Source of the DNA: a virus
Taxonomy: Duplodnaviria > Caudoviricetes
Virus record (IMG/VR): IMGVR_UViG_3300021400_001327
Coordinates: 1-64,000 of that record
Strand: one strand, 5' to 3'
DNA length: 64,000 nucleotides
Part shown: piece after piece, positions 705 through 61,008 of the stretch
How the letters are laid out: each line of letters starts with the position of its first letter
Numbering within the stretch: position 1 is the stretch's first letter
Translations under genes and position numbers: made by a program
Notes under the pieces: generated by a model
The model's database searches: none
The model's input: the letters and a program-made list of their open reading frames with translations, nothing else
Told to the model about the DNA's origin: nothing

Positions 705-1880
705 ATGGAATTTCTGAAATCATATACTGATACCGTCGTTCAGAGCGTATTGAGTTCTCTGAGCCGAGAGCATTTTGACAACTGCATAGACAGTGCATGT
801 ATTCATTCTCTTTCGGAGGATGACATGAAAGATTATTACCCGACGATCAACGGGAAAACAGTACACATCAGGGCAAAATCCCAGCAGGAGATGGCCGGGA
901 AGGTAGCTCAGATGCTTGGCAAAACTGCCGAAGGGCAGATAACGCTATCAAGCTATGCTGATAAATGGCTTGAAAGAAAGAAATCAAAACCGGCTGGTAA
1001 ACGCATCAGAGAAACGACTGTCGTAGAGTACAGCCGACAAATCATTATGATTAAACGCTTCTTTGGTGATACCACATTGGATAGCCTGTCAACAGCGCAC
1101 GTCCAACAGTTTGCCGACTGGCTCGCTCACGGCAAATCCAACGGCCTGAAGAACGACATTGCGGAGCAGACCATTGCGCGAACACTGGCCACGCTCAGGC
1201 AAATCGTGGAAGACGCTGTCGAGGTCACAGAGGTCTTGCCTCGCATGCCATACAAGCCGAAGCTGATAGAGAACAACGGCAGAAAGTCTGCTCACCACAA
1301 AGCCCTCCCACCAAAGCTGTTCGACACAGTGAGACGGGCGATACCGACGCTGGATAAACCACAAGAGCGCATACTGATGGCGCTCCTGGCCACAACAGGT
1401 ATGCGACCAGAGGAGATATATGGCCTGAGATGGGAAGACATATCGCCAGACTGGCACTATATACAAATCAAACGAGCCGTTACATATCCAGAGCGTAGCA
1501 AGCCAGTCGTGGGCAAGCCTAAGACAAACAATTCAAACCGCTTCGTTAATCTGGTCGGCTGGGTGGCTGATAGCTTGAAGCCCTATGCCCAAGAGTCCGG
1601 CTATATCTTCGGTGGTGACAACCCGCTGTGCTATTCATCAGTCAAAAGATTACAGCGCGGCGCCTGGGCAAACGTCGGTCTGAAGGGCACCGGCGTCACA
1701 CCGTATGATTTCCGCGCAAATTTTGCTACGATGTTATGCGAGAGCGGCAAGACAGATAAACAGGTCGCCGACCTGATGGGACATGCCGACACACGCATGG
1801 TCAACACTGTGTACGCGCCAGCCCGGAAAGACGGCATATTAATGCATAATTATGCATGTGAGCAGCTCTTCGGTATGTAA
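705..1880 (+). CDS. int: Tyrosine recombinase / phage integrase (start uncertain: 678/681, 705 or 825)
   Basis: TGMRPEE (Arg I), KPKT (Lys), YDFR in place of HxxR, LMGH, VY (catalytic Tyr); lies next to a tRNA-derived att core. Confidence 0.92.
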   Translation: MEFLKSYTDTVVQSVLSSLSREHFDNCIDSACIHSLSEDDMKDYYPTINGKTVHIRAKSQQEMAGKVAQMLGKTAEGQITLSSYADKWLERKKSKPAGKRIRETTVVEYSRQIIMIKRFFGDTTLDSLSTAHVQQFADWLAHGKSNGLKNDIAEQTIARTLATLRQIVEDAVEVTEVLPRMPYKPKLIENNGRKSAHHKALPPKLFDTVRRAIPTLDKPQERILMALLATTGMRPEEIYGLRWEDISPDWHYIQIKRAVTYPERSKPVVGKPKTNNSNRFVNLVGWVADSLKPYAQESGYIFGGDNPLCYSSVKRLQRGAWANVGLKGTGVTPYDFRANFATMLCESGKTDKQVADLMGHADTRMVNTVYAPARKDGILMHNYACEQLFGM

Positions 1881-17400: not shown

Positions 17401-17648
17401 TCGTTATCGCCAAACCACGATTCATGGACTCTACCCCAGCCGTAGTAACGAAACTGGTCGCCGTTATTGCCGTCGCTTTTTTCATTAACTGTTTGATTGA
17501 TTGTTATGTTTGTGACGCCGCCGGACGCATTTCCACCCCTGCCATTATTTCCAAGCGCTGAATCGATCCGATCTAATATCTGGTTGAACTGCGCACCGGT
17601 TATCCCCGAATTCGGTATCTTTCCACCAATATTCACTTTTCTTGCCAT
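2420..17648 (-). CDS. Giant tail tape measure protein, spliced (exons 17648-12815 and 12537-2420; ~4,983 aa)
   Basis: TP901-type TMP motifs (IDTAMTELRKVT, ANAYAVTASDIAAGLQRSASAL, LLELLAGKVRSNQVAALL). Removing 12538-12814 gives ...MRIRGAKTE-L-EEAGEDT in frame. Confidence 0.9.
12538..12814 (-). ncRNA. Group I intron (277 nt, no homing endonuclease ORF) in the tape measure gene
   Basis: 5' exon ends in U and pairs GAGU/GCUC (P1, U-G). P4 UCGGAG/CUCCGA; R CGUAACGACCAC and S AAGGUAUGGUCU (P7 GACCA/UGGUC); ends in G. Splicing restores the frame. Confidence 0.9.
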
Positions 17649-41228: not shown

Positions 41229-42374
41229 TTAGAAGATGCTGGCTTCTCCGTCGCTGCCATTGCTGACAGGGGCAAAGATGTCGAGCTCATCATGATTGTC
41301 GTCATGCTCATTTTTGCGGTTAGCGACGATGCTGACGCAGATTTTGTTCACGACGCTATTGATTTCGCAGTTCATGGGGTCGGCCTTGAACGCGTCAATC
41401 TCATCTTTCGCGTAAGCCTGCTCGGCTTCGCTATAGTCCTTCAGAGCACTCTCCAGTTCGGCAACGCGCTCTTTCTTCGCGTACTCCTCGACCTTCTGTT
41501 CGAGCTCCGCGATTTTGGCTTCCTGTGCAGTCGCCTCTTCTTTCAGCTGATTAACCTCGGCTTCCAGAGCAGCAACCTTTTCGTTCGCGGCGTTCAATTC
41601 CGCGTCCTTGGCTTCGATGCTCTCGTTCAGCTGATTGATCTCGTTCGTGTGATTTGCAGTATCATCAAGCACGGCATGCAATTCCGTCTTAATTTCATCA
41701 ACAAATCCACGGAGCTTGGTTTCATCCATGCTACCATCCTCCTTGTTGTTTAGTTCGAGTACATGACAAGACGTATCGGCTGGCGGTACAGCGCCAGACA
41801 GAATTGCATAGCCAGAGTACTCATATTGCATCGGGACGCGGCCTTCATCTTTATACCCGTCCTCGTACACAATCACATTGTTATTTTCCGGTGTGCCGAC
41901 GATCTCGACACTGCCCATCACGTTGCCGTTCGGGATTTCCTTCTTCAGGTAATCCACCAGCCCAGGGCAGCGATGTTCATACAGGACGCCCTCCGCCAGC
42001 AGTACCTTCGTGGGTGTACCGTCGATATCGACCGTCGTGATCTCGCCGCCGGTAATACTGCCGACAACCTCGGACGTTGTGCTGAACAAAGGCATCGGCT
42101 TGCCGTCGTAATCCTCTGTTTCGCCAAGATGTCCGTGTCCCGCGATCTCGGTCTCGTCAGCAGTCAGTCCTTTCTCAAGATACTCGACGACGATTTCCGA
42201 TGGCGCGAGCCGCTTCATGGCCTCGCGGACATATTCCTCTTTCCACGAGATGCCGTTGTACTGGAAGTCTTCCGGCGAGTCCATGATCCTGTGCAGTATC
42301 ATTTTGATGGGGCGCTTTCCGCCTCTCACCTGAGCTTCACTGAGTTCGTAGATTCTGGTTTTGATCTGTTCCAT
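41229..42374 (-). CDS. Prohead protease/scaffold
   Basis: N-terminal protease-like domain (GSVEIVG...YSGYAIL) plus an acidic coiled-coil C-terminus. Confidence 0.7.
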   Translation of the reverse strand: MEQIKTRIYELSEAQVRGGKRPIKMILHRIMDSPEDFQYNGISWKEEYVREAMKRLAPSEIVVEYLEKGLTADETEIAGHGHLGETEDYDGKPMPLFSTTSEVVGSITGGEITTVDIDGTPTKVLLAEGVLYEHRCPGLVDYLKKEIPNGNVMGSVEIVGTPENNNVIVYEDGYKDEGRVPMQYEYSGYAILSGAVPPADTSCHVLELNNKEDGSMDETKLRGFVDEIKTELHAVLDDTANHTNEINQLNESIEAKDAELNAANEKVAALEAEVNQLKEEATAQEAKIAELEQKVEEYAKKERVAELESALKDYSEAEQAYAKDEIDAFKADPMNCEINSVVNKICVSIVANRKNEHDDNHDELDIFAPVSNGSDGEASIF

Positions 42375-42388
42375 GCAGAATCACCTCC

Positions 42389-43951
42389 TCAGTCGCTTGG
42401 GCTCGGCAGCGCATTGCCGCCATTGGCGCGGGTCGTCAAAGTCTTCGGGTTGTGGGTGTCCTCGTCTATGGGACGGCCACCCCCATTGCCGCCATTGTCA
42501 GCGCCAAACGTAAATGACGTCTGATGCACAGGATACTTATGTTCGACATCGTTCTCGAGCTCTTCATCGAGCATATCGAAGAACGCGTCGGCGCCGATGC
42601 CGACAGCGGTCGCCCACATCGACAGCGAGCCCTTGCCGTTCAGGTACAGGTCCTTCGACATCTCAACAAACTGCTTACGGTTCGTATAAGTGATCGGCAG
42701 GTACCGGATATCCACACGGTATTTGCTGTCCTGTACAATGTTGGCGTTGATGACTTTATTGAGCTCCTCGACAATCATGTCGATGACCTCGAACACCTCT
42801 GCTGTAATCAGCTGAAGGTTGTTCTCCTGAGCGCTGAAAGACGACGTGCCCTCGCCTGTCAGCAGGCTTCCGGCAAAGCCAAGACCGAGGGAAATATTCT
42901 TCCTCAGGTTCTGGCTGTTGTCTTCGTCGAGGATGCTCACGTCTGGCTTTAACACATCCAGCTTTGTTCCAGCCGCCACAGAAAAGAATGTTGTGGCGCC
43001 GGTAGAGCCGTTCGTGCCCTTAATGGCGTCACGCACCGTATCGTGCTGTAGCTTCTGCTGCTTATCGGTCAGTGCGCTCTCGCCCTTGTTCTTTCCCTCG
43101 GGGTATGTCTCATAAATGATGCGTTTGTTGATCTCATCGATAGCCAGCCGCTTCGACCGTGTCATCAGCGCGTCATACAGGATATCGTCGATAGCCGCCA
43201 GTGCCAGCGGCCTGCCGTATGGCTCAGACTTCTTCGCCCTGAACTTGATGGCGACGGTCTTGCTCGTATCGAGCACGCGCCACTGTTTGCCGTGCCCGGA
43301 CCGCCATTGCGCATAAGCATCCCTGATTTCCTTTGGATACCGGCGTAGCTTCTCCTCGGCTGGTTCATTACCGCTCAGCAGGAAGTATTCCAGATTGAAC
43401 GACAGCACATATGACCCGTTCCGTATGCCAACGATGCGTGTGTAGTCGGGATCAAGGTAGATAACAGCGGCGTTCAGCAGCGTGTTCTGTTCGTTGATCT
43501 CGACGATGTTATTGACCTGCCAGTCGCTCAGCGTGGTCTCCGTGCTCAGCGGGCGCTTCCGCGTTTCAAAGTACGCGAAATACACGCCGTCGATCAGCGT
43601 ATTGAAAAGCGCATCGCGAACGAGCTCCTTGTCCCGCACGATACGCAGTACGTCCTTGACGAGATTTTTATATTTCTGTTTCTTGTTCTTGCTGTCACCG
43701 TGCGCCACAAGCACATGATTGAGCGTCGGCAATGCCGTACAATAGTCTATGACGTTAGTGACGACGCCGTTACAGGAGTACAGCGTCCTGCTGAGCTCTC
43801 TGATCTCGCGGTTGAAAGTCATCGGCTCTTTGACGATTTCCTGTATCTTATCGATATCATACAGATCGAGGATATTGCATCCATACACCGGACGCCATGA
43901 TACATTATCCCATCGGGAACTGGCTTCATAGCTTGGGCTTTCCTCAGCCAT
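42389..43951 (-). CDS. Portal protein
   Basis: 520 aa directly after the terminase; C-terminal GGRP motif. Confidence 0.8.
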   Translation of the reverse strand: MAEESPSYEASSRWDNVSWRPVYGCNILDLYDIDKIQEIVKEPMTFNREIRELSRTLYSCNGVVTNVIDYCTALPTLNHVLVAHGDSKNKKQKYKNLVKDVLRIVRDKELVRDALFNTLIDGVYFAYFETRKRPLSTETTLSDWQVNNIVEINEQNTLLNAAVIYLDPDYTRIVGIRNGSYVLSFNLEYFLLSGNEPAEEKLRRYPKEIRDAYAQWRSGHGKQWRVLDTSKTVAIKFRAKKSEPYGRPLALAAIDDILYDALMTRSKRLAIDEINKRIIYETYPEGKNKGESALTDKQQKLQHDTVRDAIKGTNGSTGATTFFSVAAGTKLDVLKPDVSILDEDNSQNLRKNISLGLGFAGSLLTGEGTSSFSAQENNLQLITAEVFEVIDMIVEELNKVINANIVQDSKYRVDIRYLPITYTNRKQFVEMSKDLYLNGKGSLSMWATAVGIGADAFFDMLDEELENDVEHKYPVHQTSFTFGADNGGNGGGRPIDEDTHNPKTLTTRANGGNALPSPSD

Positions 43952-49882: not shown

Positions 49883-50569
49883 TCAGCGAGAACCAAGACG
49901 CAGAGCCGCATACAGCGCCTCGATGTCGTTGTCGATAAGTTCGTGCTCTCCTGTATTTTTATATGGCACAAGCAGTTTGAAGCATGACACAGAGCGGCGA
50001 TATTTTGAGAAACGACCAGCGGCCTTGCCTTTGTCTGTATCTACCTTTGCGATGTATTGCCACTCGCACAGGCGGCGGATATTGCGCCCGCGAACGTTGG
50101 CGCCTTTCATATCCAGCCAATTAGCCAGTTGCTCGGTTGACGCCTGAAACACCCCACGCCTGTCAGCGAACGCCTTTGCATTGCACAACAGGGCAAGCGC
50201 CACCTTCCTGTCTGTCTCTGTCGGCGCATGGTCCACGATATTCTGGGCGTCTGTCTCTGATACGAACACACGACAGCCACTGTGAAGCTCGGCTTCATTG
50301 ATGTACGCAGCGTTGACGCACTGAAGGAGATTCAGCCCGTTCGTCTTGTGGCCATTCAGCCAATCACGAATAAAGGAGACGGCGTCCACTGGGGACTCGC
50401 CGTCTGCCTTCATCAGCTTGGATATCATATAACATGCCCGATACAGCCGACTCTGCTCCTCTGGCGGCTGTCCAGACATATACTTCTTAACTTCCGCGAC
50501 CTCGTCAATCATCGTCATCCTCCAGAAAATCAAAGATGCCCGGTTCAAGCGAGATGTCCATCTCGTCAC
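49883..50569 (-). CDS. Hypothetical protein with a possible winged-helix domain (likely start ~50512-50518)
   Basis: STEQLANWLDMKGANVRGRNIRRLCEWQYI resembles a wHTH; lies directly after the RNAP gene. Confidence 0.5.
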   Translation of the reverse strand: MTRWTSRLNRASLIFWRMTMIDEVAEVKKYMSGQPPEEQSRLYRACYMISKLMKADGESPVDAVSFIRDWLNGHKTNGLNLLQCVNAAYINEAELHSGCRVFVSETDAQNIVDHAPTETDRKVALALLCNAKAFADRRGVFQASTEQLANWLDMKGANVRGRNIRRLCEWQYIAKVDTDKGKAAGRFSKYRRSVSCFKLLVPYKNTGEHELIDNDIEALYAALRLGSR

Positions 50570-53330
50570 TGTTCATCGGGACCATCGTGTAGTGACGCCC
50601 AAGATAGCTGAGCTCGCCATCATCATCGCGCTTTGGCACCATGATGCCAGCCTGCGGCTTCACGTTCGCCACGACACCGTCCGGCGCCACGACCCAAGGG
50701 AACTTCCTTCCGCGCCCTTTGTACACCTCATGCACGAGCTTTGTAGCAATATTGGCCAGCACCCGCTGGTCATCACAAACCTCAGCGCACAGCTTCCTAT
50801 ACTTCTGATACAGCGCGTCCCAGTCGGCGATGAAGGTAGTCGCCTCGTACTTCGTAAACTGCTGTCTGATCTCACGGTCAGAGTACCGCCTGACTTTCGT
50901 CTGGTATTTCTGGAGCTCGTTCGTCTCCTTGCAGAAGTCTTTGAATATCTTGGCCACCGCGTCGAACTGCTCTTGTGTGTAGGCAATGCTCTCGTCGCAC
51001 ATCACACTGTAGTCGAATCGCTCCTTCCGCCGCCACTTAAGCTCACGTTCCCATTTCTCGAGCTCACGGCAGAGGCGGTTCATATTGCTCGGCGCTTTTG
51101 AAAGTTCCATCCTTGCGTAGTACGGCGACCGATACCGCATAAAATACGGGAGGGGTCTGCCCCACTTACTGATTACGCGGGGCATTGAATAAAGGACGCC
51201 GGTTTTTGCGTAATCGATGCTCTTCCCGACGATGGTACTGATAATGTCCTCATACTTCTCGTACCGCTCCTTCTGCTCATCTGTCTTCGGGCAGCGGTTC
51301 AGATATACACTCGCGTAGTTGCTGTACTCGCCAATCATATTCTTTGTTGTTCTGGTCAACAGCAGGACGCGACCGGCGGCGTCGTTGTTTTCCTTCAGGG
51401 CTGTGACCTTGTCTTCCATGTCGATAACGATAGTGGCGTTTTTGTCCGACCCGTCCAGGAAGAGCGGGTTGTCATTGACCAGTACGATATCACCCATAAC
51501 CCACCGGCTTTCGCCGATGGCCGGACTATTTCTTTACCCATTGCTGGGCAGCTGGCACTTCGCCGACTGGAGTTTCACCAGCCAGCTACTCCTTACGGAT
51601 AGTCTCTACACCTTCCTCTCACGAGGCTTGGCACGGCATTGTCCTGCGCTCATGCGTTTAGAGTTTTGCCGTTAGCCGACCCAAAAGTCCATATATTATT
51701 GATAGTGGTCATTTGGTCCGACACCCCAGTTGTCTGGGTTCACCAGCTTTTCATCATCACGTTACCGTGATGCGCGACAGTGTTACTTATCGAAATCCGC
51801 ACCGTTCAATCTCTGCGCCACTAAGCTCTTTATGTTCAGCATAGCCACATTTGTCAGGTGGCCGCACCATTTCCAAATCTCGTCCGCGTTATTCACTCGG
51901 AGCACTACGTTCTCGCTCCGGCAGATGTGCGGGTTTCTTGTCACGACGTATTCCCCGTCGTACGTGATGCCCTTGCCTTTCGTCCAGAACTCATCGGCGC
52001 CGAGACAGCCGACAACCGGAAGTCCGCCAATGTGTTCCGCAAACGCGATCAGGTCTGGGGCGATAAACTTGAAGCATGACTTAATGTACAGCTTACCGCA
52101 CTTCATATCGTTGATAAACTTGTCCAGCAGGGACATGATGTATTTGTTCACTGTTGGCTCTTTCATCATGGCGTCGTTCTTAGCAATCGCCGCCACGTAC
52201 GCGTTCAGCGCGTTGCACTTCCCGTCTACGATACCAAGGAAGCATTTGGTAAAAAGCTCGTCTCCGCTAACGATGCGCTCAATCCACCTCGCAGACTGGT
52301 GGGCCAAGGTCTTGAAGTCCTCATAGGGCAGGTCCAGCGTCTGCAAGACCTGATAATTGCTCCGTGTGTACACCGGCTCTTCCTCTTCGGTGAAGTTGGC
52401 GCGGGCAATAGAAATACAGTGTTCGTATTTATAGAACGCATCCCAGTACCGTTGCCAGTCCCTTGCGTCGCCGTACTGCTTGAAGTAGCCGAGCCCCTTG
52501 TACATGCTCTCGCTCAGGATGATCATCTCTTCGTGGATGCTGTGCTTCTGCCCCCACAGGTCCTCAATATACTCGACGCCGCGCTCCTCGTAGAAGCCCT
52601 CGTAGTCGAAGACGTGAAGACACCCTTTAATGAACGGCTGCCTGTAGATGACGGTGGTGATGGGCGTTGTGCTGTTGGTCAGCGTCTCCATCCAGTGAGC
52701 CACGTTCTTATGCATGATGCCAACACCATCGAACGCGTTGATCTCGTAGTCGAACACGCCCTCGGCGATGTCCTTCTGCGTAAAGTTGAACTCTTTGCCT
52801 TCAGAGTTCGTGTACGTGGTCACCTTATCAACAAGGTGTTTGATGCGCTGGTTCTTGATGGTCGTCATCATGTCCGGCACAACGATCATCTTCGGCACAT
52901 AGTTCTCGATGCAGTGTGCTGATGAAAGCGCGAGCCCGCGATAGGCGTACCACTTGCTCAGTACCGTCTTGTCGATTTTCAGCCCCATCGTCACGCGCTC
53001 TGTGAGCTCGTCCGCTATCGAGGCATCGACCATCGACAGTACGCCCTGGCGCACCATAGACGCGCTGCGCTCGCCGAGCACGAACGGTCGCCCGCGTATC
53101 TTGATACCCTCCAGCGCAAGCCGCGACAGTGTAACAGCGATATCCTTGTGGTAGTTAATGTCCACGAAGATGATATACGGGTTGTACTTCGACGTCACGC
53201 CGGTGATGCGCCTGATCTGTCTCAGGTACTGGCTGTCGGCCTGCTTGATGAAATACTTCTTCTCTTCCTCTGGCGAGATATCCAGACTGAAATCTGCCTT
53301 TACGATCGTACGCAGATCAATCGAGCGCAC
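50505..53330 (-). CDS. yonO: YonO-like single-subunit (cellular RdRP-fold) DNA-dependent RNA polymerase, spliced (exons 53330-51789 and 51494-50505; ~843 aa)
   Basis: SASMVRQG, AFDGVG, RQPFIKG, VTRNPHI..SE, RLNGADFD|GD, GKSIDYAKTG; heads an SPbeta-like late cluster. Confidence 0.88.
51495..51788 (-). ncRNA. Group I intron (294 nt, no ORF) inside the RNAP catalytic DFDGD motif
   Basis: P1 CGAU/GUCG; P UAACGGCAAAA; Q AAUGCCGUGC; R GUGUAGAGACUA; S AAGAAAUAGUCC; P9 GAAA hairpin; terminal G. Confidence 0.93.
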
Positions 53331-53372
53331 GATATACTGCTTAGGCGCCTGTATGTTGCAACACCGCCCTTC

Positions 53373-53573
53373 TTAATCTTCTTCGAGCTCCCGTATGCTG
53401 AAGCCCGCCTGAGCCCATGTCTCTTCCCTCGCTACCTCATAGGCGCGTTCTGGAGACTCGAACTCATCATCGTAGTCATTTGGGTAATAATAGCCGCAGT
53501 ACTGCTCGCCTTCCTTCCCGCAACCCGTCAGCCGCCAGTAACAGGTCGCGCATGAATACTTTGATTTGATCAA
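53373..53573 (-). CDS. Small Cys-rich hypothetical protein
   Basis: CATCYW...C...CGYY. Confidence 0.6.
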   Translation of the reverse strand: MIKSKYSCATCYWRLTGCGKEGEQYCGYYYPNDYDDEFESPERAYEVAREETWAQAGFSIRELEED

Positions 53574-54004
53574 CCCTCATCACCGGCCTCTGCGGCATCG
53601 CCGCCTTCTTCTATGAAAAGACTGGGATTGCTGGCCATGTACGCAGATTTCGCGCTTGGTACGACGTGATTGTTCAGATCCAGTACAAACTCCTGTAACC
53701 GCTGCAACGTGACCTCCGGCGGCAACAGTCCCTGAGCCATCGCATCCATCATAATGGCCACGACCTGCGCCGGTTCACACATCATGGGCTCCATAGCCAC
53801 CACCTTTGAGTGCTTCAGGATGAACGCCTTTACCTTCGGCGTGAACTTGGTCACCCCTACATTCACGAACACGTTGGCGAGGTCTACCATCACCGTATCC
53901 CCCATACCATCCACATACACGCGCTGAACACCGCACGTCTTCGGCGGCGCCCCCTCTTCTGTCTGTTCCATCAACGCCACCTTGAACCAATGCTTTACTT
54001 CCAT
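53570..54004 (-). CDS. Hypothetical protein
   Basis: AGGAGG RBS; chained with neighbouring genes. Confidence 0.6.
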   Translation of the reverse strand: MEVKHWFKVALMEQTEEGAPPKTCGVQRVYVDGMGDTVMVDLANVFVNVGVTKFTPKVKAFILKHSKVVAMEPMMCEPAQVVAIMMDAMAQGLLPPEVTLQRLQEFVLDLNNHVVPSAKSAYMASNPSLFIEEGGDAAEAGDEG

Positions 54005-54019
54005 GCTTCCCGCTACCTC

Positions 54020-54328
54020 CTATTTGATTTCTGCCTGTAAACCATATTTCTTGAACAGCGCCTCGACATGCTGCCTGATTGTCTCCTCACGCATAAGCTC
54101 CGGCTGTCTGTTCGCCAAAGACAAAGCTTCGAGCATTACAGACTGCACTTCCTGTATCGCGAAGACGACCAGCATCCCCTCCCTGTAGGCCACTGCCTTT
54201 CCAAGGTCAATGATCGGCTGTACGTCGTCCAGCACAGCCGACGGCGACCCGAACCTCGTCTTGCCGATAAACTCATTGACGAAATGGTCAATAGTAAGGG
54301 CGACCCACTCACCCGTCACGTCAGCCAT
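54020..54328 (-). CDS. Hypothetical protein
   Basis: Translationally coupled ORF. Confidence 0.6.
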   Translation of the reverse strand: MADVTGEWVALTIDHFVNEFIGKTRFGSPSAVLDDVQPIIDLGKAVAYREGMLVVFAIQEVQSVMLEALSLANRQPELMREETIRQHVEALFKKYGLQAEIK

Positions 54329-54686
54329 CGGCGCTCACCTTCAACTTCAGCTTCTCGACCATCTTGTCGTCGACCAGCTTGGCGCGGTCAATAAACTTCC
54401 GCATGTCGTCCCATACATCCTCAAGGGTTTTGGTCCCGCGCCGGTTGATCGACTCTCGCATCTGCGCCGATACGATAGCCTGGAGCACACCGCCAAGCGT
54501 CGTGTAATAACCGACAGCCACATAGTTCTCTTTGCCGATGTTCTCCTGCTTGGGCTGTTTGCCGGTGCCGCCGCCTTTGACCTTCGTTCGCCGGTACAAA
54601 ATCAAACAGTAGTTGTCCGCGCCGAGGAACCACTCATCAACGATCGGTATGACCTTCGGCTCCCTTTTCTCTTCTGCCAAACCCAC
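54321..54686 (-). CDS. Hypothetical protein (DUF5405-like)
   Basis: GADNYCLILY...VGYYTTLGGVLQAI; GGAGGTG RBS. Confidence 0.55.
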   Translation of the reverse strand: MGLAEEKREPKVIPIVDEWFLGADNYCLILYRRTKVKGGGTGKQPKQENIGKENYVAVGYYTTLGGVLQAIVSAQMRESINRRGTKTLEDVWDDMRKFIDRAKLVDDKMVEKLKLKVSADG

Positions 54687-54718
54687 TCACCTCCATAAAT
54701 ATCCTTAAAACTAATTTG

Positions 54719-54767
54719 AACAAATCGCCACGCGTTTCCACGAAGCGAGCCGATAACTTGTTAGGGT
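54719..54767 (+). repeat. Bipartite site, copy A (AACAAAtCGCCA-N20-CGATAACTTGTTAGGGT)
   Basis: An inverted copy lies at 58585-58633. Confidence 0.7.
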
Positions 54768-54815
54768 GTTTTTCCATCGGCCTTCACGATCTCTAAAATA
54801 TTGATTTCAGATTGC

Positions 54816-55211
54816 TTACTTCTTTTTTCTGCTCTGCTCGACCCTGTCCTCAATGATTTCGGCGATCCTCGGGTCTTTGACGATCTCTTCGGCGTCCGCG
54901 TCGGTCGGTACACGATAAGCGCTCTGCACGTAGTTGTAGAAAGCCCCTTTCATCTTTTGACCGAGACCGGCGACAGAGATCATGCCGCCGTTCCAAGCGT
55001 CGGCCAGTACGTTGATATCCGAGTACGCCGGGGTCGAAAGTTTACAGCAGGTACACTCGATCCAATATGCGTGAAGGTTTTTGAATATAGCCTTACTGCC
55101 GCAGAGGGGGCACGTCTTTATCTTCGGCTGTTGCTCGGGCAGCTCAACGTATGCCGTCTCGGTAAGGGACTGAACGCCATAACCAGTGTTCCAGAATGCA
55201 CCGCTTGCCAT
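54816..55211 (-). CDS. Lar-family (restriction alleviation-like) Zn-finger protein
   Basis: IKTCPLCGSKA...WIECTCC...AWN. Confidence 0.6.
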   Translation of the reverse strand: MASGAFWNTGYGVQSLTETAYVELPEQQPKIKTCPLCGSKAIFKNLHAYWIECTCCKLSTPAYSDINVLADAWNGGMISVAGLGQKMKGAFYNYVQSAYRVPTDADAEEIVKDPRIAEIIEDRVEQSRKKK

Positions 55212-55516
55212 TACGCATCCCGTTCCTTCCGGTACCAGTCATTGAATATCTCACAGGCGAGCCACAACTGATGCCATATCTGGCCAATATCGATCTCCGC
55301 GATCTCGGTGAACGGTCTGTCGCCCACGAAGTGAAGCTCTGGCGGTTCCTTGCCGGAGAAGTACCAGTAGGCCAGCGTGAAGCAGTAAGCTCTGCCGGAG
55401 CTCTCCCTGGTCCATTTGACGAGCTCTACGTAAGGCTGGCCGTCGCCGAGACTCTTTGTTGTTCGTATTTCAAACTCACCGTATTTCCAATTGAAGTCGA
55501 ATTGATTGGTCTCCAT
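55211..55516 (-). CDS. Hypothetical protein (METNQFDFNWKYGEFEIR...)
   Basis: Internal ATG of the 55211-55783 ORF, with an AAGGAG RBS. Confidence 0.6.
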   Translation of the reverse strand: METNQFDFNWKYGEFEIRTTKSLGDGQPYVELVKWTRESSGRAYCFTLAYWYFSGKEPPELHFVGDRPFTEIAEIDIGQIWHQLWLACEIFNDWYRKERDA

Positions 55517-55719
55517 GCATACTCTCCTTTGATGCCATCCATCCTCGCTCCGCACTCGGGGCAGAAGTTGGTCATTGCAAAATCTCCAGCCTTGTCCTCT
55601 ATCGCGAAGGTCAAACAGTTTGAGCAGAACGGCTCGACGCCGTGTTCGTTCGCCACCCATTCCGCATGAGGCTGGGATGGACACTTCCCGCACTGGTCTG
55701 TGGCATAAGTCCACGTCAT
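55426..55719 (-). CDS. Zn-ribbon protein
   Basis: AEW...FCSNC...NFCPECGARMD, a common phage early-gene motif. Confidence 0.6.
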   Translation of the reverse strand: MTWTYATDQCGKCPSQPHAEWVANEHGVEPFCSNCLTFAIEDKAGDFAMTNFCPECGARMDGIKGEYAWRPINSTSIGNTVSLKYEQQRVSATASLT

Positions 55720-56054
55720 TTCTTTCCGGCCTCCTCGGCTGCGGTCGCCGCGATGAAGCGGTCCCTGAACTCGATCGCCGCACGGCTCATGTAGGCAGCG
55801 CCGTCGGTGGCCTCGTCCAAAGTATCGGGCAGGCGTCCGGCCAGAAACTCACCGAATAGCAGGTGAACGCCGAGCGTGATCATGTCCCGCTTATGCCGGT
55901 TGCGGCCAGCGCCCTTGATGGCGACAGCGCAGACCTCTGCCAGGTACTGGTCCCAATGTTTATAGAAGCCGGTCTCAGGCGCGATCTTGAACCCGCAGAC
56001 TTCCATCATTTTCTTCAACACATCATCCATGCTTGATGGCCTCCTCAAATTCAT
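55716..56054 (-). CDS. Hypothetical protein (likely start 56030)
   Basis: GAGGAGG RBS before MDDVLKK. Confidence 0.55.
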   Translation of the reverse strand: MNLRRPSSMDDVLKKMMEVCGFKIAPETGFYKHWDQYLAEVCAVAIKGAGRNRHKRDMITLGVHLLFGEFLAGRLPDTLDEATDGAAYMSRAAIEFRDRFIAATAAEEAGKK

Positions 56055-56406
56055 CCAATAGCTTAGCCGCCCTCAACATCAGTGCGCCGGTGCAATCACC
56101 GAGGGACTTTCCGTGGTCGGTTCCCGTTACGCAGTCACTGCACGTCTCATCGTTATACGGCAGGCTGCACCGCTTGAGAGACATCGACGTCTGTTGTACC
56201 TCGCCGAGAAGGACGGCGTTCTGGATAACCTTCATCTCCTCGATCTCGTGACGATCGCGCTCAAGGGACAAGTCCTTCCTCAGCTGGCTGATCTCGTTCT
56301 CCGCGTCACGCATCCTGTGCGCGTCCGTGATGTGCATAATGACGAGCAGAAGGCATAGCGCCGTAAATAAAAAATAAATGACCCGAAGGTCAGTCTCAAT
56401 GTTCAT
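56023..56406 (-). CDS. Hypothetical membrane-anchored protein
   Basis: MNIETDLR start with GGAGGTG RBS; one TM segment. Confidence 0.55.
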   Translation of the reverse strand: MNIETDLRVIYFLFTALCLLLVIMHITDAHRMRDAENEISQLRKDLSLERDRHEIEEMKVIQNAVLLGEVQQTSMSLKRCSLPYNDETCSDCVTGTDHGKSLGDCTGALMLRAAKLLDEFEEAIKHG

Positions 56407-56656
56407 GGGGCACCTCCAATACTTCTGCCGGTACGCTCCAGCACTCCCATGTGACCCCGTACTCATTCAATGGCAACATGTACCTGTGCTTCGCGCTCTC
56501 GAACAGGTAAACACCGCTATCCTGCATAAGGAAGAACGTTGGCTCCTGGCACCACACTTCGTCTGGGTCACAGCAGGTGATAACGACGAGCTCGTTCTCC
56601 TCCAGACATTTAACGTCGAGGAGAGTCATCTTAGTTATCTTGCTCATCGAACTCAT
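56396..56656 (-). CDS. Hypothetical protein
   Basis: ORF with RBS; YGVTWECW motif. Confidence 0.55.
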   Translation of the reverse strand: MSSMSKITKMTLLDVKCLEENELVVITCCDPDEVWCQEPTFFLMQDSGVYLFESAKHRYMLPLNEYGVTWECWSVPAEVLEVPHEH

Positions 56657-56743
56657 TCCTTCCTCCTGCGCTCACCAGCGCCATACAAAAAATGCCAACC
56701 ATCGCTGACAGGGGAACGATCCAGAACAGATGCCATATACTAA

Positions 56744-57412
56744 TCATTGCTCCACCTTTCTGATCACGTACCGGTGATCCCTGAACTCAGATTCCTTATC
56801 CATCTTCTCAACGCTGCGCACAATAATGTTGCAGTCGCCCTTAGCTGTATTTACGAGCGCGATATCCCCAGGCTTCAGTTTCTCCGCCAGCGCCTTGTCC
56901 GCGTACCACTGGAAGTCCACTGTGTCGGTCGCGTGATGGACGCCGTGCACCACGTACAGATCCCTCTCATCGTCGTGCAAAGCATCGATATGGCAGAGCA
57001 CGTTCCACAGGCTTTGCTGTACCTGCTTCGCCTCAGCGCCGATACGCTCGATTTCGTCCTTGTACCGTTTCATGGTTTCGCCCAAGCCCTCAGCCTTTCG
57101 CTGAAGCTCTAGCTTTCGCGCCATGAGTGCGCTGTACTGGTGCTCCCTCTTCACATGCTCGACAGGCGGAGGCGTGAACTTGATTGAGGCCAGCATCTCC
57201 TCCGGCGTGAGCTCATGCTCGAGCACCCACTGCTTCTTCTTCACGTCCTTGCCGTTGTCTGTTACGACAGCAACATCATACATTTGCCAGGAGTCATCGG
57301 CCATGTCATAATAACCAACGGTCGAATACGGGTCCTTCCTTAACTTCCAGAGCCATTTGCCCTCGCCCGTGTCCTGATTGATAAAATATCCAATGCTTCC
57401 CTGATACATCAA
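56744..57412 (-). CDS. Hypothetical protein with a coiled coil
   Basis: GGGAGG RBS; 222 aa. Confidence 0.6.
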   Translation of the reverse strand: MMYQGSIGYFINQDTGEGKWLWKLRKDPYSTVGYYDMADDSWQMYDVAVVTDNGKDVKKKQWVLEHELTPEEMLASIKFTPPPVEHVKREHQYSALMARKLELQRKAEGLGETMKRYKDEIERIGAEAKQVQQSLWNVLCHIDALHDDERDLYVVHGVHHATDTVDFQWYADKALAEKLKPGDIALVNTAKGDCNIIVRSVEKMDKESEFRDHRYVIRKVEQ

Positions 57413-57507
57413 AACCTCCCGTTATCGTACCAGTCAGATAGTACAGCCATGATTAACACGATACAGAATAAACCGAGAATGATCGTCATGTCCGCTAAGT
57501 CCCCCAC
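57409..57507 (-). CDS. Small hydrophobic peptide (~26-32 aa)
   Basis: AAGGAGGTGA RBS at 57516-57525; ...MTIILGLFCIVLIMAVLSDWYDNGRF. Confidence 0.45.
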   Translation of the reverse strand: MGDLADMTIILGLFCIVLIMAVLSDWYDNGRF

Positions 57508-57605
57508 AATGAAGGTCACCTCCTTTGCGTAAATAAAAAACGGCGAGCCTTCGCGCCCGCTCAGAGATATGTAAAAGGCAGACACCTGGTCTGCCCTGTA
57601 AGAAT

Positions 57606-57634
57606 AATATAACACATCGTGGCCGCTGCGTCAA
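57606..57634 (-). promoter_or_regulatory. SigA-type promoter for the early minus-strand operon
   Basis: TTGACG-17 bp-TATATT with an extended -10 TG. Confidence 0.65.
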
Positions 57635-57659
57635 ATTAGGTTGGCGGCTCCGTTCTATC

Positions 57660-58450
57660 CATTGGATAAACTCTGGATGTATATTTTAAAATCGACGAAT
57701 CTTTTGTAATATCAGATTAATTAAATTATTTTTAATCTGTTTTTTGAAAAATTCTCTATCATTAGTATAGTATATATAATAAGACTAATAATCAGATTAG
57801 TACTCAGTTAGATGAGAACTACTGTACAGTAGAACTCAATCAGTTGAGAACTCCTGTAGATGAGTCCTAATTTTTTAAAAACTAATAAGACCGGTCTTAA
57901 TAGCTTATACTCTCTATGGACATAATGGTATACCATTCTCTCTATGAGGTACATGTAGAATAAGCTATTCTGTAACGATATAATATTATAAGCTTAGATG
58001 CAATATAATATAAACTATTACACTCAATAAACTTAGATGCAATATATAAGCTATTAAGCTCAAGTAACTTAGATACGTCTACTATGATACATAATAATAT
58101 AATCTATGACTTAACGGCTTATATAAGCTATTACCTAACGGCTTATACCAGATGTCACTTAATAGCTTATACTCTCCAGTCTTAAGGGCTTATATCTCAT
58201 AGAGTCCTTGATTCTAACTGCTGATATATTCATTTATAGCCATGAAGCAAATAAATGAATATATCAGCAGAGAGTAATAGAAGAATATAGAGAAGACTGT
58301 CCATAGAGTACATGTAGAGCGTAATAGCTTAGTAACGTATCAAGGACTCGTTACAGAATAGCTTATACCTCTCGGTGCTTATATGCTTACCATTATGTTC
58401 TAATCTCTTAATAGCTTTTAAGATAATGGGTCTCGGCAAAAAATTTTCTT
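57660..58450. repeat. AT-rich noncoding region with iteron-like repeats; putative replication origin
   Basis: AATAGCTTAT/ATAAGCTATT repeated in both orientations; CTTAGAT tandem units; perfect 20-bp inverted repeat at 58218-58270; no ORF. Confidence 0.55.
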
Positions 58451-58584
58451 GGGTCGGATGGCTTCGGGGCGCCGGTGACTGACGGCTGATGACGCAGCGG
58501 CTGGCGATTTATCGCCAGGAAGTTTTGCGGCGGGCGCGTATCTGTATTTTTAATTCTAACAAATCCCTGAACGTCTCCGGCTGG

Positions 58585-58633
58585 ACCCTAACAAGTTATC
58601 GACCTTTACGAAAGAATTGGCTGGCGGTTTGTT
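58585..58633 (-). repeat. Bipartite site, copy B (inverted relative to copy A)
   Basis: Minus strand reads AACAAAcCGCCA-N20-CGATAACTTGTTAGGGT. Confidence 0.7.
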
Positions 58634-58655
58634 AGAATTTAATATACGTGTATTT

Positions 58656-59492
58656 TCACTCGTCGTCGTCAGTGTCGAGCGCGTACTGGTAGCTGAGTTC
58701 CATGCTCTTCACGGCAGTTTTGCCTAGTACAAAATCAGAAACACCGCGCCGGAGACTGCTGGTACGCGGGAGCCGACATCCGATGTAAGCCATCGTGGTC
58801 GTCTGGTTCGCGTGACGAAGCATCAGGGATGTGTCCGCCATAGCGAGCGCCGCGTTCTGGATGTCTCGGGACGTAGAGGCTATCGTGTTGGCGATGGTGG
58901 CGAAGGTCTTACGCATCGTGTGTGTAGAGGTCCTGAGGTATGGAGCCGCTGCGCGTAAGCCGGTACGCAATAACCGGTTGGCGGCGTCGGTCGCCATCGG
59001 GGTTTTGCCCTTGCCTTTGTTCGAGGCGAAGAGGTAGTTGTCCTGGGTGAACGGCATGGTCCAGCGGCACTCGTTGATGTAGAGGCTGACGTACTGCTTG
59101 ATGGCGTCCGTGATCAGCATCTCGTCGTCCTGAGAGCAGGTGCGCTTGCCGGTCTTGATCTCGATGATGTCGATAGCCCGCCTGAACGTGATGGGGTTCG
59201 TGGAGATCAGAAGGTCGGATACCTTGAGAGCGCAGAGGTCAGAAATACGAAGGCCGGTACATACACCAGTCACGAACATAGCGGCTTCCCTGAACTTGCG
59301 CTGGGAGAGGAAGTGATCGATGACCGCCTTTACCTGAGCATAGGACTCAAGGGGCTGCGCGGCCTTGATGGCAGAGACGCCCTTCGCCAACTGCTTCTGG
59401 CGCGGGGTAAGATTTTCGTCCTCTACGGTATAAGCCAGAGAGGTCATGTTCACAGAGTCCGCGCCGGGGAACGCAATGATCTTACCGCTCAT
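58656..59492 (-). CDS. Second tyrosine recombinase (essentially the catalytic domain only)
   Basis: TGLRISDL, EIKTGK, HTMRKTF, LRH...TMAYIG. Confidence 0.88.
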   Translation of the reverse strand: MSGKIIAFPGADSVNMTSLAYTVEDENLTPRQKQLAKGVSAIKAAQPLESYAQVKAVIDHFLSQRKFREAAMFVTGVCTGLRISDLCALKVSDLLISTNPITFRRAIDIIEIKTGKRTCSQDDEMLITDAIKQYVSLYINECRWTMPFTQDNYLFASNKGKGKTPMATDAANRLLRTGLRAAAPYLRTSTHTMRKTFATIANTIASTSRDIQNAALAMADTSLMLRHANQTTTMAYIGCRLPRTSSLRRGVSDFVLGKTAVKSMELSYQYALDTDDDE

Positions 59493-59549
59493 AATAGCCT
59501 CCGATTAGATGTAGGATCTGGTACGGTGGACCTGACTTCCACCGAAATC

Positions 59550-59578
59550 AGTGTACCACAAAATGTCGGTTTTGTCAA
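59550..59578 (-). promoter_or_regulatory. SigA-type promoter of the recombinase, overlapped by an AAAATGTCGGT direct repeat
   Basis: TTGACA-17 bp-TACACT with TG; repeat copies at 59560 and 59582. Confidence 0.75.
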
Positions 59579-60171
59579 GAGAAAATGTCGGTCTCCCGGG
59601 CGTTTTCGCGAGGTCGATGTCGGCCTGTGCGATTGAATGCGGGGATGGCGGAAGTGGTCTGGCGACGATGAGGAGCTTGGTGTGCAGCGGCTACGGAAGA
59701 TCAGGCGGCGCCCACACGTTAAAAGAAGGGGACGTAAAGGCCACTACATCATCATGGAAAATGTTTTCCAATCCCCTTTCCCTGTGACTCCCTGGTCCCA
59801 TTTCTTTTGCTTTTCCCAGAGCTCAGAAATGGGACCAGACTACTGGGAGGGAAGGGGATAAGCCGGGAGGCGCAGAGGGTGGGTATACACTCTTTTCGGT
59901 GGTGATTGGTGTCGCGTTTGGGGTCGCAGGGGGAGGAGGTGGTTTTGGGGGTTGAGAGGGGGATTTTGGTGGATGGGAAATAAATTTTGGGGGTTGGGAG
60001 GAGAGGCAGCTTGGCCGGGCCAGGCTGGTCGCTCGGTGGGCTGAGATGTAAACGGGGCGGGGGATGTCGGGTTTCTGTCGAAAACCGATATTCTGCGGCG
60101 GTCGCGGTCGCGGCATAAAAAGAGCAGGGGCGGCGGCGCGTCCCTGCTTCTGTTGCGGTGGTGGTCAATGG

Positions 60172-61008
60172 TTAGTCGGTCACGAGTTCCAGCTTTCCGG
60201 CACTGGTTACTTTCAGCAGCCCAGCCTTTACAAGGACTTTTACAAGGTAGGGCTTGACGGATGAGGGATTTTTCACTTTTTCCCCGTGTCCCTCCACCAT
60301 CCTTTTCATATCCTGCGCCTGCTTCGCTGTGCACTTCCCCATTCGTTCCCGCTCTGCGATGGCTTCCAGCGCTCTCTCGGTCCAGTCCATGACGGCGCTT
60401 GTCTCGGCAAGGCGGCGTTCTGCGGCACTGGTGGCGCTTCGCTCGTGTACGTGCTCGACAGGCGTTCCCTCTTTCGCGCTTCTTGTGACAATCCGCTTCT
60501 CAAGCCTGCCGCAAGCCCTACACGCTTCGATGAATGCACTGTGATGGTCGGCGTAATAATCACCCTCAAGCTCGGCAGGTATCATGACGGTGTACTGTGC
60601 CGCCTCCGCTTCTGCTTCACTGATAGCGAGAGCGGCGGTCTGTATCATGTCGGCATAATGACGAATGTAGACGTTCTTGTCTGCGGTCGCGCCGCGCCTG
60701 ATAGCACCCTTGATTTTCGCGGCTACCACACGCCGCGCAAGGTCATATACAGGGCCTGAAAAAACGGCGCGTCCTGCGGCGGCTTCCTCTGCTCGGTGAT
60801 TGATGGGGGCTGTGGTGGTGGCCTTCCTATTAGTGGCGGCGGCGGTGGTGGTCGTGACGGCGGCGGCGGTGGGGATGGTGTAGGCGTTCATGCGCTCTAA
60901 CACCCTGATGATACGAGCGGTGAAGCTATGCGGTGTGCGGGGGTCTCTGATAGCCTTAACGGCGGCGGCGATACGGGCGGCGGCGGTGGTGGTGTTGGTG
61001 GTTTTCAT
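60172..61008 (-). CDS. Hypothetical protein with a Thr/Ala-rich N-terminus; weak sigma-region-2-like segment
   Basis: GAAAGGA RBS before MKTTNTT; HYADMIQTAALAI. Confidence 0.5.
   Translation of the reverse strand: MKTTNTTTAAARIAAAVKAIRDPRTPHSFTARIIRVLERMNAYTIPTAAAVTTTTAAATNRKATTTAPINHRAEEAAAGRAVFSGPVYDLARRVVAAKIKGAIRRGATADKNVYIRHYADMIQTAALAISEAEAEAAQYTVMIPAELEGDYYADHHSAFIEACRACGRLEKRIVTRSAKEGTPVEHVHERSATSAAERRLAETSAVMDWTERALEAIAERERMGKCTAKQAQDMKRMVEGHGEKVKNPSSVKPYLVKVLVKAGLLKVTSAGKLELVTD

Follow-up and report, generated by a model that had tools for sequence, protein, structure and literature searches.

Composite DNA elements at the borders of an origin and early-gene module in SPbeta-like phages, adjoining a gene for a catalytic-domain-only tyrosine recombinase

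Genes and features of the locus

The analyzed window, a stretch of 64,000 nucleotides, comes from a gut phage with a circular genome of 107,314 bp (G000 in the comparisons). By its sequence, this is a phage of the SPbeta-like group with a YonO-type polymerase. The single-chain RNA polymerase gene, present as two ORFs at 50505–53330 (−), shares 25% identity with SPbeta YonO over 423 aa (E 2e-21) and corresponds to the RNAP mentioned in an earlier note on this DNA. About eight small genes of mostly unknown function form a block at 54816–57615 (−), which includes a Lar-like zinc-ribbon gene (54816–55211) and represents the fast-diverging part of the region. The block is headed by a sigma-A-type promoter-like site at 57606–57634 (−), TTGACG-17-TATATT with an extended TG, in agreement with the promoter that the earlier note placed at 57606; two hairpins with T-runs come after it (57543–57560 and about 57570–57595). 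An AT-rich, origin-like region with several iteron families and nested inverted repeats lies at 57640–58450. The AT-richest 500 nt of the genome, the iteron families and the genome-wide minimum of cumulative G-C coincide at 57.6–58.3 kb, supporting the ori-like character proposed earlier.

A tyrosine recombinase of 278 aa (P0121), consisting of the catalytic domain only, is encoded at 58656–59492 (−). Its Pfam match to PF00589 (E 1.3e-11) starts at residue 53, and in the AlphaFold model (pLDDT 82) residues 1–23 are disordered, one short helix spans residues 30–37 and the catalytic fold begins at about residue 50; neither the model nor the start of the Pfam match leaves an N-terminal core-binding domain. 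The catalytic residues R82, K113, H191, R194, H227 and Y236 are conserved and align with the XerA motifs. Across 35 homologues with identities as low as 35%, as well as all six phage copies, the R-K-HxxR-H-Y signature does not vary, and with all catalytic residues kept the protein looks catalytically competent. The best structural and sequence matches were XerA, lambda Int and Cre; in NCBIfam, ‘tyrosine-type DNA invertase’ matched weakly (E 0.0011), far below the cut-off. Metagenomes contain 336 homologues at E≤1e-20. The possibility that this is the integrase-type recombinase of the phage was rejected, because a second, full-length tyrosine recombinase of 391 aa, a candidate prophage integrase, is encoded at 705–1880 (+), at the far end of the tail module.

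The 17-mer CGATAACTTGTTAGGGT is found at 54751–54767 (+) and again, as a perfect inverted copy, at 58585–58601 (−), as the earlier note had described; both positions were located by sequence and pattern search. No further match was found in the window at up to three mismatches, and the whole genome holds only the two copies even at four mismatches. The chance expectation is 0.08, and none of 100 shuffles gave two matches. Since there are only two copies genome-wide, and not the many dispersed ones that the earlier note had named as a sign of an operator or promoter, a dispersed motif of this type is rejected. Both copies are intergenic, and in this phage neither overlaps a consensus promoter.

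Each core is preceded, exactly 20 nt upstream, by an outer box, AACAAAYCGCCA, in line with the second motif seen earlier. In the distal element A, the box AACAAATCGCCA (54719–54730, +) faces away from the enclosed segment, and the core lies between the stop of the Lar-like gene (54816) and the start (54686) of a 121-aa gene just outside the element (54321–54686, −), which has a weak match to PHROG 154 (‘replication initiation protein’). In the proximal element B, the box AACAAACCGCCA occupies 58622–58633 (−). Its proximity to the recombinase stop codon (58656) is confirmed, with the box starting at 22 nt and the 17-mer at 54 nt from it. Site B is separated from the origin-like region by 135 nt and site A by 2.9 kb. 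An inverted repeat around copy B had also been noted; it is present, its arms however are not 12 bp long but 20 nt with 90% complementarity (58544–58563 and 58628–58647, the palindrome spanning 58544–58647), and each arm carries CTAACAAA. The left-right complementarity score of 16 is significant against 2000 random positions (p=0.002). Within the core itself, the dyad is limited to TAAC-TT-GTTA, and the canonical recombinase site of two inverted 9–13-bp arms around a 6–8-bp spacer is absent.

Conservation in related phages

The locus was compared with those of three SPbeta-like phages, L429/G006, L431/G005 and L001/G002, whose recombinases are 62, 57 and 46% identical to that of the window phage. 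The same core, GATAnCTTGnTAGGGT, is present in all three. Its proximal copy lies 55–135 nt past the stop of the same catalytic-domain-only recombinase, beside an AT-rich iteron origin, and its distal copy is 3.7–9 kb off, at the far border of the fast-diverging early-gene block. In L429 and L431, the distal core occupies the position equivalent to core A, and the 121-aa gene is conserved in these two phages and in G002. A PWM of the core, with a null rate of 1.3 matches per Mb, gave no match in 11 YonO-bearing relatives without a recombinase of the 278-aa type and none in SPbeta. Two further genomes, G003 and G004, encode a 37%-identical recombinase and have no recognizable intergenic core.

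Genomes with the element carry two to four copies. The two copies are inverted in G000, G005 and G002, with the origin near one of the inverted sites also in the latter two, and form direct repeats in G006. Partner cores are identical in G000 (17/17) and in an additional inverted pair of G002, which surrounds its integrase gene (the homologue of the 391-aa recombinase), 40 kb from the origin. They differ in three of the five pairs: at 2 positions in G006, at 6 in G005 and at 5, central ones, in the origin pair of G002. The distal element of G002 sits between a stop codon and a terminator. A local palindrome around the core is significant in 5 of 10 elements, and its sequence varies between phages.

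All four phages have the enclosed block in one orientation and with its genes in the same order. Outside the sites, the nucleotide sequence resembles those of G005 and G006 without a break (67–80%); between them, short patches of similarity are left, and the 9 kb enclosed in G002 have no gene in common with G000. The outer halves of the elements are alike within each phage, whereas the inner halves are not; the proximal inner half of G005 matches the distal inner half of G006 (score 26, null maximum 14). The element flanks are chimeric between phages.

The elements are real and specific, are conserved in four phages and sit at module borders, with one of them always adjoining the recombinase gene. 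Because of this constant neighbor, which has kept its catalytic residues, ‘recombinase-related sites’ is a reasonable description of these sites, which are far beyond chance expectation, and the earlier note is supported to that extent.

Weighing the explanations

The earlier note had further read the two sites as borders of a dedicated invertible segment. Under programmed inversion, the recombinase would join A and B and flip the 3.8-kb segment with the origin and early promoter, either as a switch that separates the promoter at 57606 from the genes running towards YonO and the late genes, or as Flp-like fork redirection (double rolling circle). The inverted, 17/17 identical G000 cores with their outer boxes at equal spacing would suit such a reaction, as would the competent-looking recombinase, the 2-micron geometry (origin beside one site, with the other 3 kb away, a layout kept in G005 and G002) and the perfect inverted pair around the G002 integrase gene. 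The direct repeats in G006, the differing partner cores in G006, G005 and the G002 origin pair (there central in the motif), and the constant segment orientation in the four phages argue against it. No flipped segment was seen in any genome compared or any contig. Four metagenome runs, drawn from three studies, gave contigs that contained no strand-changing joint; because these contigs cross the sites in the reference orientation only, roughly equimolar isomers like those of the 2-micron plasmid are excluded, while a rare flipped form, which contigs would miss, is compatible with them. We regard programmed inversion as unlikely, and the same counter-evidence weighs on the 2-micron-like flipping suggested earlier; the fallback given in the earlier note, resolution or protein-binding sites, fits the evidence best. 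Orientation independence and tolerated core differences are also typical of a binding site, which raises a rather different explanation: the recombinase-fold protein, or another DNA-binding protein of the phage, may bridge both elements as an architectural regulator and not as an enzyme. In lysogeny, the resulting loop would keep the origin and early promoter insulated or silent, in the manner of MrpR of SPbeta on SPBRE; half of the elements are two-fold symmetric, and the extra G002 copies around the integrase gene would fit a regulon. MrpR (YopR), identified as the SPbeta repressor in 2023, has a recombinase fold that lost crucial catalytic residues, and SPBRE comprises about ten promoter-located copies (PMC10516654). 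The window phage belongs to the same group, with its YonO-type polymerase, and likewise pairs a recombinase-fold protein with a short repeated intergenic element. Unlike MrpR, however, the 278-aa protein retains its six catalytic residues, invariant across the family, and shows no detectable sequence relation to YopR (hhalign probability 0.1%) or, more broadly, to MrpR or YopP (<1%). Our k-mer reconstruction of SPBRE from ten bound promoter regions gave an AT-rich motif (about AAAAATATGTATA) unrelated to the core. Moreover, there are merely two to four sites per genome (two in G000), none overlapping a recognizable promoter, and the distal one of G002 has a stop codon on one side and a terminator on the other. 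We consider an architectural role of this kind fairly unlikely.

The elements could instead serve replication or packaging, as auxiliary sites of an initiator (P1 incA-like control, fork barriers) or of the terminase (pac), the recombinase gene being adjacent by inherited synteny. In every case the proximal element borders directly on the iteron origin, the phage-specific boxes change along with the origin module, and the outer boxes of G006 (TTAGATAC, twice) resemble origin repeats of G000 and G005. Part of the core is DnaA-box-like (TTATCCAC) in G002 and in the G006 proximal element, and the pac site of SPbeta is located in the region upstream of yonP-yonO (bioRxiv 10.1101/2021.11.22.469490). 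On the other hand, the outer boxes are unlike the origin iterons in G000, G005 and G002, the likeness to a DnaA box is absent in G005 and weak in G000, one G002 pair surrounds the integrase gene 40 kb from the origin, and the flipped G006 proximal element speaks against a polar fork barrier. Such a function appears fairly unlikely. Far less probable is that the elements act as folded nucleic acid, either at the RNA level, with a hairpin for processing or stability, or as a hairpin of single-stranded DNA that serves as an attC-like recombination substrate or priming signal. The core is nested in a phage-variable palindrome that is significant in 5 of 10 elements, and in most elements the core is predicted to lie inside a long-range stem. 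Nevertheless, fold energies are not clearly better than those of shuffles (z from 0.9 to −3.2), two elements, G000 site A among them, lack an outer stem, no Rfam match was found, and if transcribed with the genes, the 17-mer of one copy would read as the complement.

Proposed docking sites at module borders and known systems

The reading that we favor, with a probability of roughly 0.4, is that these composite sites, at which the 278-aa recombinase would dock, delimit the origin module. The two sites are conserved cores, each within a composite cis-acting element of about 60–110 bp of DNA, in which the core, (R)GGT-N-GATAnCTTGnTAGGGT, is accompanied by phage-specific flanking boxes 14–31 bp away and often by a local palindrome. 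Such an element stands at each border of a module composed of the origin and fast-evolving early genes in a small clade of gut and rumen phages of the SPbeta-like type, the proximal one directly behind the gene of the catalytic-domain-only recombinase. The recombinase may dock on the elements, probably with the help of an accessory DNA-binding protein by which the phage-specific boxes are recognized. The normal reaction would take place between like elements on different genome copies and not as routine flipping of the 3.8 kb, so that replication products are resolved or joined and, over evolutionary time, core-adjacent sequence is exchanged. From the sequences we infer that the recombinase is most likely the protein that binds the elements, and the type of its reaction is proposed on the same grounds.

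The varying orientation and core identity fit docking or like-with-like recombination better than inversion of A by B. Several points count against docking: the adjacency of the recombinase could be mere synteny with the origin, the four phages being related; the core, with only TAAC-TT-GTTA, has no canonical arms and spacer; G003 and G004 have the recombinase and no recognizable core; for dimer resolution, one site would suffice; and in G000 the copies are identical and inverted, which would mechanically permit inversion.

SPbeta-like phages are a model group in which the roles of several recombinase-fold proteins are only beginning to emerge. The present element is a previously undescribed cis element, tied by position and co-occurrence to an uncharacterized family of minimal tyrosine recombinases common in metagenomes. 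If the recombinase acts on the border elements, this would be a tractable case of site-specific recombination organizing a phage replication module, and the compact recombinase-site pair could be a possible tool. Even without such activity, the limits of the origin module can be recognized by these elements, which is useful for annotating this phage group.

Cre/loxP of phage P1, XerS/difSL and XerH/difH likewise combine a simple tyrosine recombinase with a specific site within about 100 bp of its gene, and by analogy a role in handling the replication products of a circular replicon is plausible. Unlike these enzymes, the 278-aa protein has no core-binding domain. A Xer/dif site is a single sequence of 28–31 bp with two inverted arms of about 11 bp and a 6–8-bp spacer. 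The elements contain neither this architecture nor, more generally, a 28–34-bp site with two inverted arms and such a spacer as in Cre and Xer systems; they have only the short core dyad, occur in at least two (two to four) copies per genome versus one, and bring phage-specific outer boxes. In the Flp/FRT system of the yeast 2-micron plasmid (Futcher model), 599-bp perfect inverted repeats, with the origin near one site, yield equimolar isomers. Inverted sites, the asymmetric origin and a recombinase on the same replicon are shared with it; in contrast, the phage repeats are short (17–100 bp) and imperfect, direct in one relative and with differing cores in most pairs, and no equimolar orientation isomers are seen in the contigs. 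FimB/FimE-type invertases and invertons resemble the locus in the small recombinase without the classic N-terminal domain and in the short inverted repeats around a promoter-bearing segment, but here the segment measures 3.8–9 kb with an origin and many genes, and repeat orientation and identity are not conserved.

Another reading, which we hold to be quite doubtful, is a natural ‘cassette exchange’ or fork-redirecting system, made of the catalytic-domain-only recombinase and paired, partly heterospecific border elements. By recombination at the cores, the block of origin and early genes would be flipped or exchanged between different genome copies or between co-infecting relatives; if true, phage mosaicism or concatemer formation would thereby have a site-specific route. 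To our knowledge, such a route has not been described for phages, and we know of no natural phage cassette-exchange system of this kind. The locus has neither an integron integrase signature nor an attC consensus; the conserved part of the element is central, whereas that of attC is at the stem base, and fold z-scores are weak, with a significant palindrome in 5 of 10 elements. As in laboratory cassette exchange with two heterospecific sites and in integron cassettes, non-identical sites of the same family flank a variable module, and the chimeric element flanks would, across the four genomes, point to exchange between phages.

Paired sites at the borders of an origin-like module

The 17-mer CGATAACTTGTTAGGGT lies at 54751-54767 (+; site A, distal) and recurs as a perfect inverted copy at 58585-58601 (-; site B, proximal), enclosing 3.8 kb, just as the earlier note had described. 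A window pattern search returned two matches in 0 of 100 shuffles. No third copy was detected in the window at up to 3 mismatches (0.08 expected by chance) or in the whole circular genome (107,314 bp, terminal overlap 107 bp) at up to 4 mismatches, leaving a genome-wide count of only two. Both cores are accompanied by the box AACAAAYCGCCA, exactly 20 nt away on the side facing out of the enclosed segment, so the spacing noted earlier holds at A and B alike. Site B begins 22 nt past the stop of the recombinase gene (58656-59492, -) and is nested in a local palindrome found by inverted-repeat search (arms 58544-58563 and 58628-58647), in agreement with the previously proposed position and nesting. 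A degenerate 16-mer search of IMG/VR returned chance-level matches only. Outward sigma-A promoters within the elements (TTGTTA/TTGTTC-16-TATTTT/TATTTA) were considered and rejected: they failed the consensus scan, the one at site B would read into the recombinase gene from its 3′ end, and the element is reversed in the related phage G006.

The phage is a 107-kb siphovirus type related to SPbeta, with terminase, portal, tail and giant tape-measure genes on the minus strand from ~46 kb down to 2.4 kb. AT content over 500 nt peaks genome-wide in the region at 57.6-58.4 kb, which also contains several families of iterons along with nested inverted repeats and coincides with the cumulative G-C minimum of the whole genome; from these features we infer a replication origin. 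Within it, a perfect 19-nt inverted repeat (57960-57978 / 58348-58366) surrounds 369 nt of iterons, and a perfect 20-nt hairpin (58218-58237 / 58251-58270, loop 13 nt) sits near its centre.

The promoter that the note had placed at 57606 corresponds to a well-matched sigma-A-type site at 57634-57606 (-) in a consensus scan. It heads approximately eight small genes, mostly of unassigned function and one Lar-like, which reach site A; past site A, a 121-aa gene, the YonO-type single-chain RNA polymerase and the late genes follow on the same strand. The polymerase is encoded in two ORFs (50505-53330, -; 25% identity to SPbeta YonO over 423 aa, E 2e-21). It is this gene, and neither of the tape-measure ORFs, that the note's RNA polymerase denotes. 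The latter two adjoin (2420-12577, -, 3385 aa; 12813-17648, -, 1611 aa), both match tape-measure PHROGs, and jointly would form an exceptionally long tape measure. The promoter itself (TTGACG-17-TATATT) is followed within ~90 nt by two T-run hairpins (GGCAGACC...GGTCTGCC, and GCGGGCGCGAAGGCTCGC then TTTTTT), with the first ribosome-binding site and ORF only beyond both. The stretch (57540-57634, -) resembles a terminated leader or small RNA and is perhaps an antitermination point; related loci L429 (5840-5960) and L431 (5300-5395) have an equivalent layout.

Compared with the related phages G005 or G006, nucleotide similarity is continuous at 67-80% on either side of the region and drops to a few short patches between the two sites. 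In a third relative, G002, the enclosed 9 kb share zero genes with the window phage, and the distance between the Lar-like gene and the distal element is 2.6 kb greater. Judged by this drop in similarity and by the lack of shared genes, the elements delimit the module comprising the origin and early genes, and no other part of the region is as variable.

A catalytic-domain-only recombinase

The 278-aa recombinase next to site B matches PF00589 (E 1.3e-11) as well as integrase PHROGs. R82, K113, H191, R194, H227 and Y236 are invariant across 35 homologues, at identities down to 35%, and likewise in six phage copies. In its AlphaFold model (pLDDT 82) the N-terminus is disordered, the catalytic fold begins at approximately residue 50 and a core-binding domain is absent; by structure the protein comes closest to XerA, lambda Int and Cre. 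Since a separate, full-length integrase-type tyrosine recombinase of 391 aa is encoded at 705-1880, the 278-aa protein is not the integrase-type enzyme. No serine recombinase was found in the genome.

Ten homologues with 57-65% identity were recovered from ENA and Logan, and a codon-pattern scan for the C-terminal motif retrieved only the two relatives already known. Among the matches listed in recombinase-query scans of IMG/VR, JGI metagenomes and GTDB, most were unrelated integrases. Against GenBank phages, blastn gave no match; tblastn against GenBank phages and plasmids gave at most 32% identity, to small recombinases of Bacillus, Streptococcus and Clostridioides elements. Many GenBank phages of Streptococcus, the Bacillus cereus group, Listeria and Clostridioides carry such small recombinases (22-32% identical), aligned mainly over the catalytic-domain part (62-82% of the query) and encoded mid-genome, away from the attachment site.

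Conservation of the elements in related phages

Five related loci were compared, following the core with a position-weight matrix built from known sites; the comparison of elements draws on four phages and weaker relatives, with L431 and L429 located via their YonO gene. In G002 (the IMG/VR contig of L001; recombinase 46% identical), the proximal element lies ~135 nt past the recombinase stop, beside AT-rich repeats, and the distal one ~9 kb off in inverted orientation; the arms of this origin pair span ~100-140 nt, are 73% alike and contain GGATATCTTGGTAGGGT / GGATACTTTATAAGGGT. G005 (L431; 57%) carries an inverted pair, 57 nt past the stop and, as in the window phage, between the Lar-like and 121-aa genes. 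The distal element of G006 (L429; 62%) occupies the orthologous place and the proximal one lies 130 nt past the stop; here the pair is direct, the entire proximal element being reversed. G002 has an additional inverted pair with identical cores, GGATAAGTTGTAAGGGT, at 41232-41248 (+) and 43054-43070 (-), 1.8 kb apart, which brackets a homologue of the 391-aa integrase among neighbouring genes rearranged relative to the window phage.

In unrelated loci totalling 4.5 Mb the matrix matched 1.3 times per Mb; it gave no match in SPbeta or in eleven YonO-bearing relatives without this recombinase in the 10 kb read. The more distant recombinase-bearing phages G001c (43%), G003 and G004 (both 37%) showed no convincing element: the 27-nt inverted repeats of G003 and G004 are terminator-like hairpins around different genes, their matrix candidate falls within a gene, and the 22-nt, 82% repeat of G001c is not significant alone. 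The paired sites are a real and conserved feature.

An alignment of the ten elements on their core gives the shared motif (R)GGT-N-GATAnCTTGnTAGGGT, with AGGGT and a central TT invariant. Outer (left) halves are alike within each phage (scores 14-30 versus a null 99th percentile of 13) and dissimilar between phages. Inner (right) halves show no such grouping, and the proximal inner half of G005 matches the distal one of G006 (score 26, null maximum 14). Five of the ten elements have their core within a significant local palindrome, the sequence of which is phage-specific. RNA fold energies were not clearly better than those of shuffles, and an Rfam search of the elements gave no match. Taken together, these patterns are read as a putative composite protein-binding element with a conserved core and phage-specific boxes; over evolutionary time, its flanks appear to have been swapped at the core or close to it. 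That the elements act as a signal in folded RNA or single-stranded DNA is very improbable.

Possible roles of the paired sites

We prefer, tentatively and at a probability of roughly 0.4, the reading in which the neighbouring minimal recombinase uses the sites as docking or recombination elements. The enzyme would dock or recombine at these borders of the origin module, in a reaction between like sites whose use is not routine flipping of the segment. Programmed inversion, proposed earlier as either promoter uncoupling or 2-micron/Flp-like switching, is quite unlikely. The window phage has identical sites in inverted orientation and, as in the 2-micron plasmid, an origin that adjoins one of them; however, the G006 repeats are direct, the cores are unequal in three of five pairs (the G002 origin pair differs at the motif centre), and the genes of the enclosed block keep one order and one orientation across the four phages. 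Logan contigs from four runs of three studies, placed on 53000-61000, spanned both sites co-linearly (X1, X5) or each separately (X3), and no strand-changing joint at the sites appeared in contigs of the four runs, which at 9-16x depth lose rare variants. A contig break in X6 at 58561-58587 was set aside as one of many in a low-depth, fragmented run. On balance, the two orientations are not in a 2-micron-like equilibrium at roughly equimolar amounts, and a rare or conditional flip could still occur.

As the phage is SPbeta-like, the precedent of MrpR (YopR), the SPbeta repressor with a recombinase fold, was also tested. In contrast to MrpR, the recombinase family here retains its catalytic residues; no sequence relation to YopR/MrpR or YopP was detected (hhalign probability <1%), and the core is unlike the MrpR-binding element SPBRE (approximately AAAAATATGTATA), rebuilt by k-mer search of ten bound promoters. 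An architectural, MrpR-like role is accordingly rather doubtful, and we give a similarly low standing to the idea that the sites serve the replication or packaging machinery.

Other repeats accompany recombinase genes in these phages. The 391-aa integrase gene lies between inverted 50-nt terminator-like hairpins (619-668 / 2356-2405) and likewise between the arms of a 23-nt, 91% inverted repeat (776-798 / 2132-2154), one of which is inside its 5′ end. In the Ruminococcus-MAG phage contig L233, a perfect 20-nt palindrome, ATTGAAAATGTATTTTCAAT, occurs at least four times (279-299, 1926-1945, 5513-5533 and 6935-6954); it is scattered around the recombinase and early region of that contig and resembles an operator.
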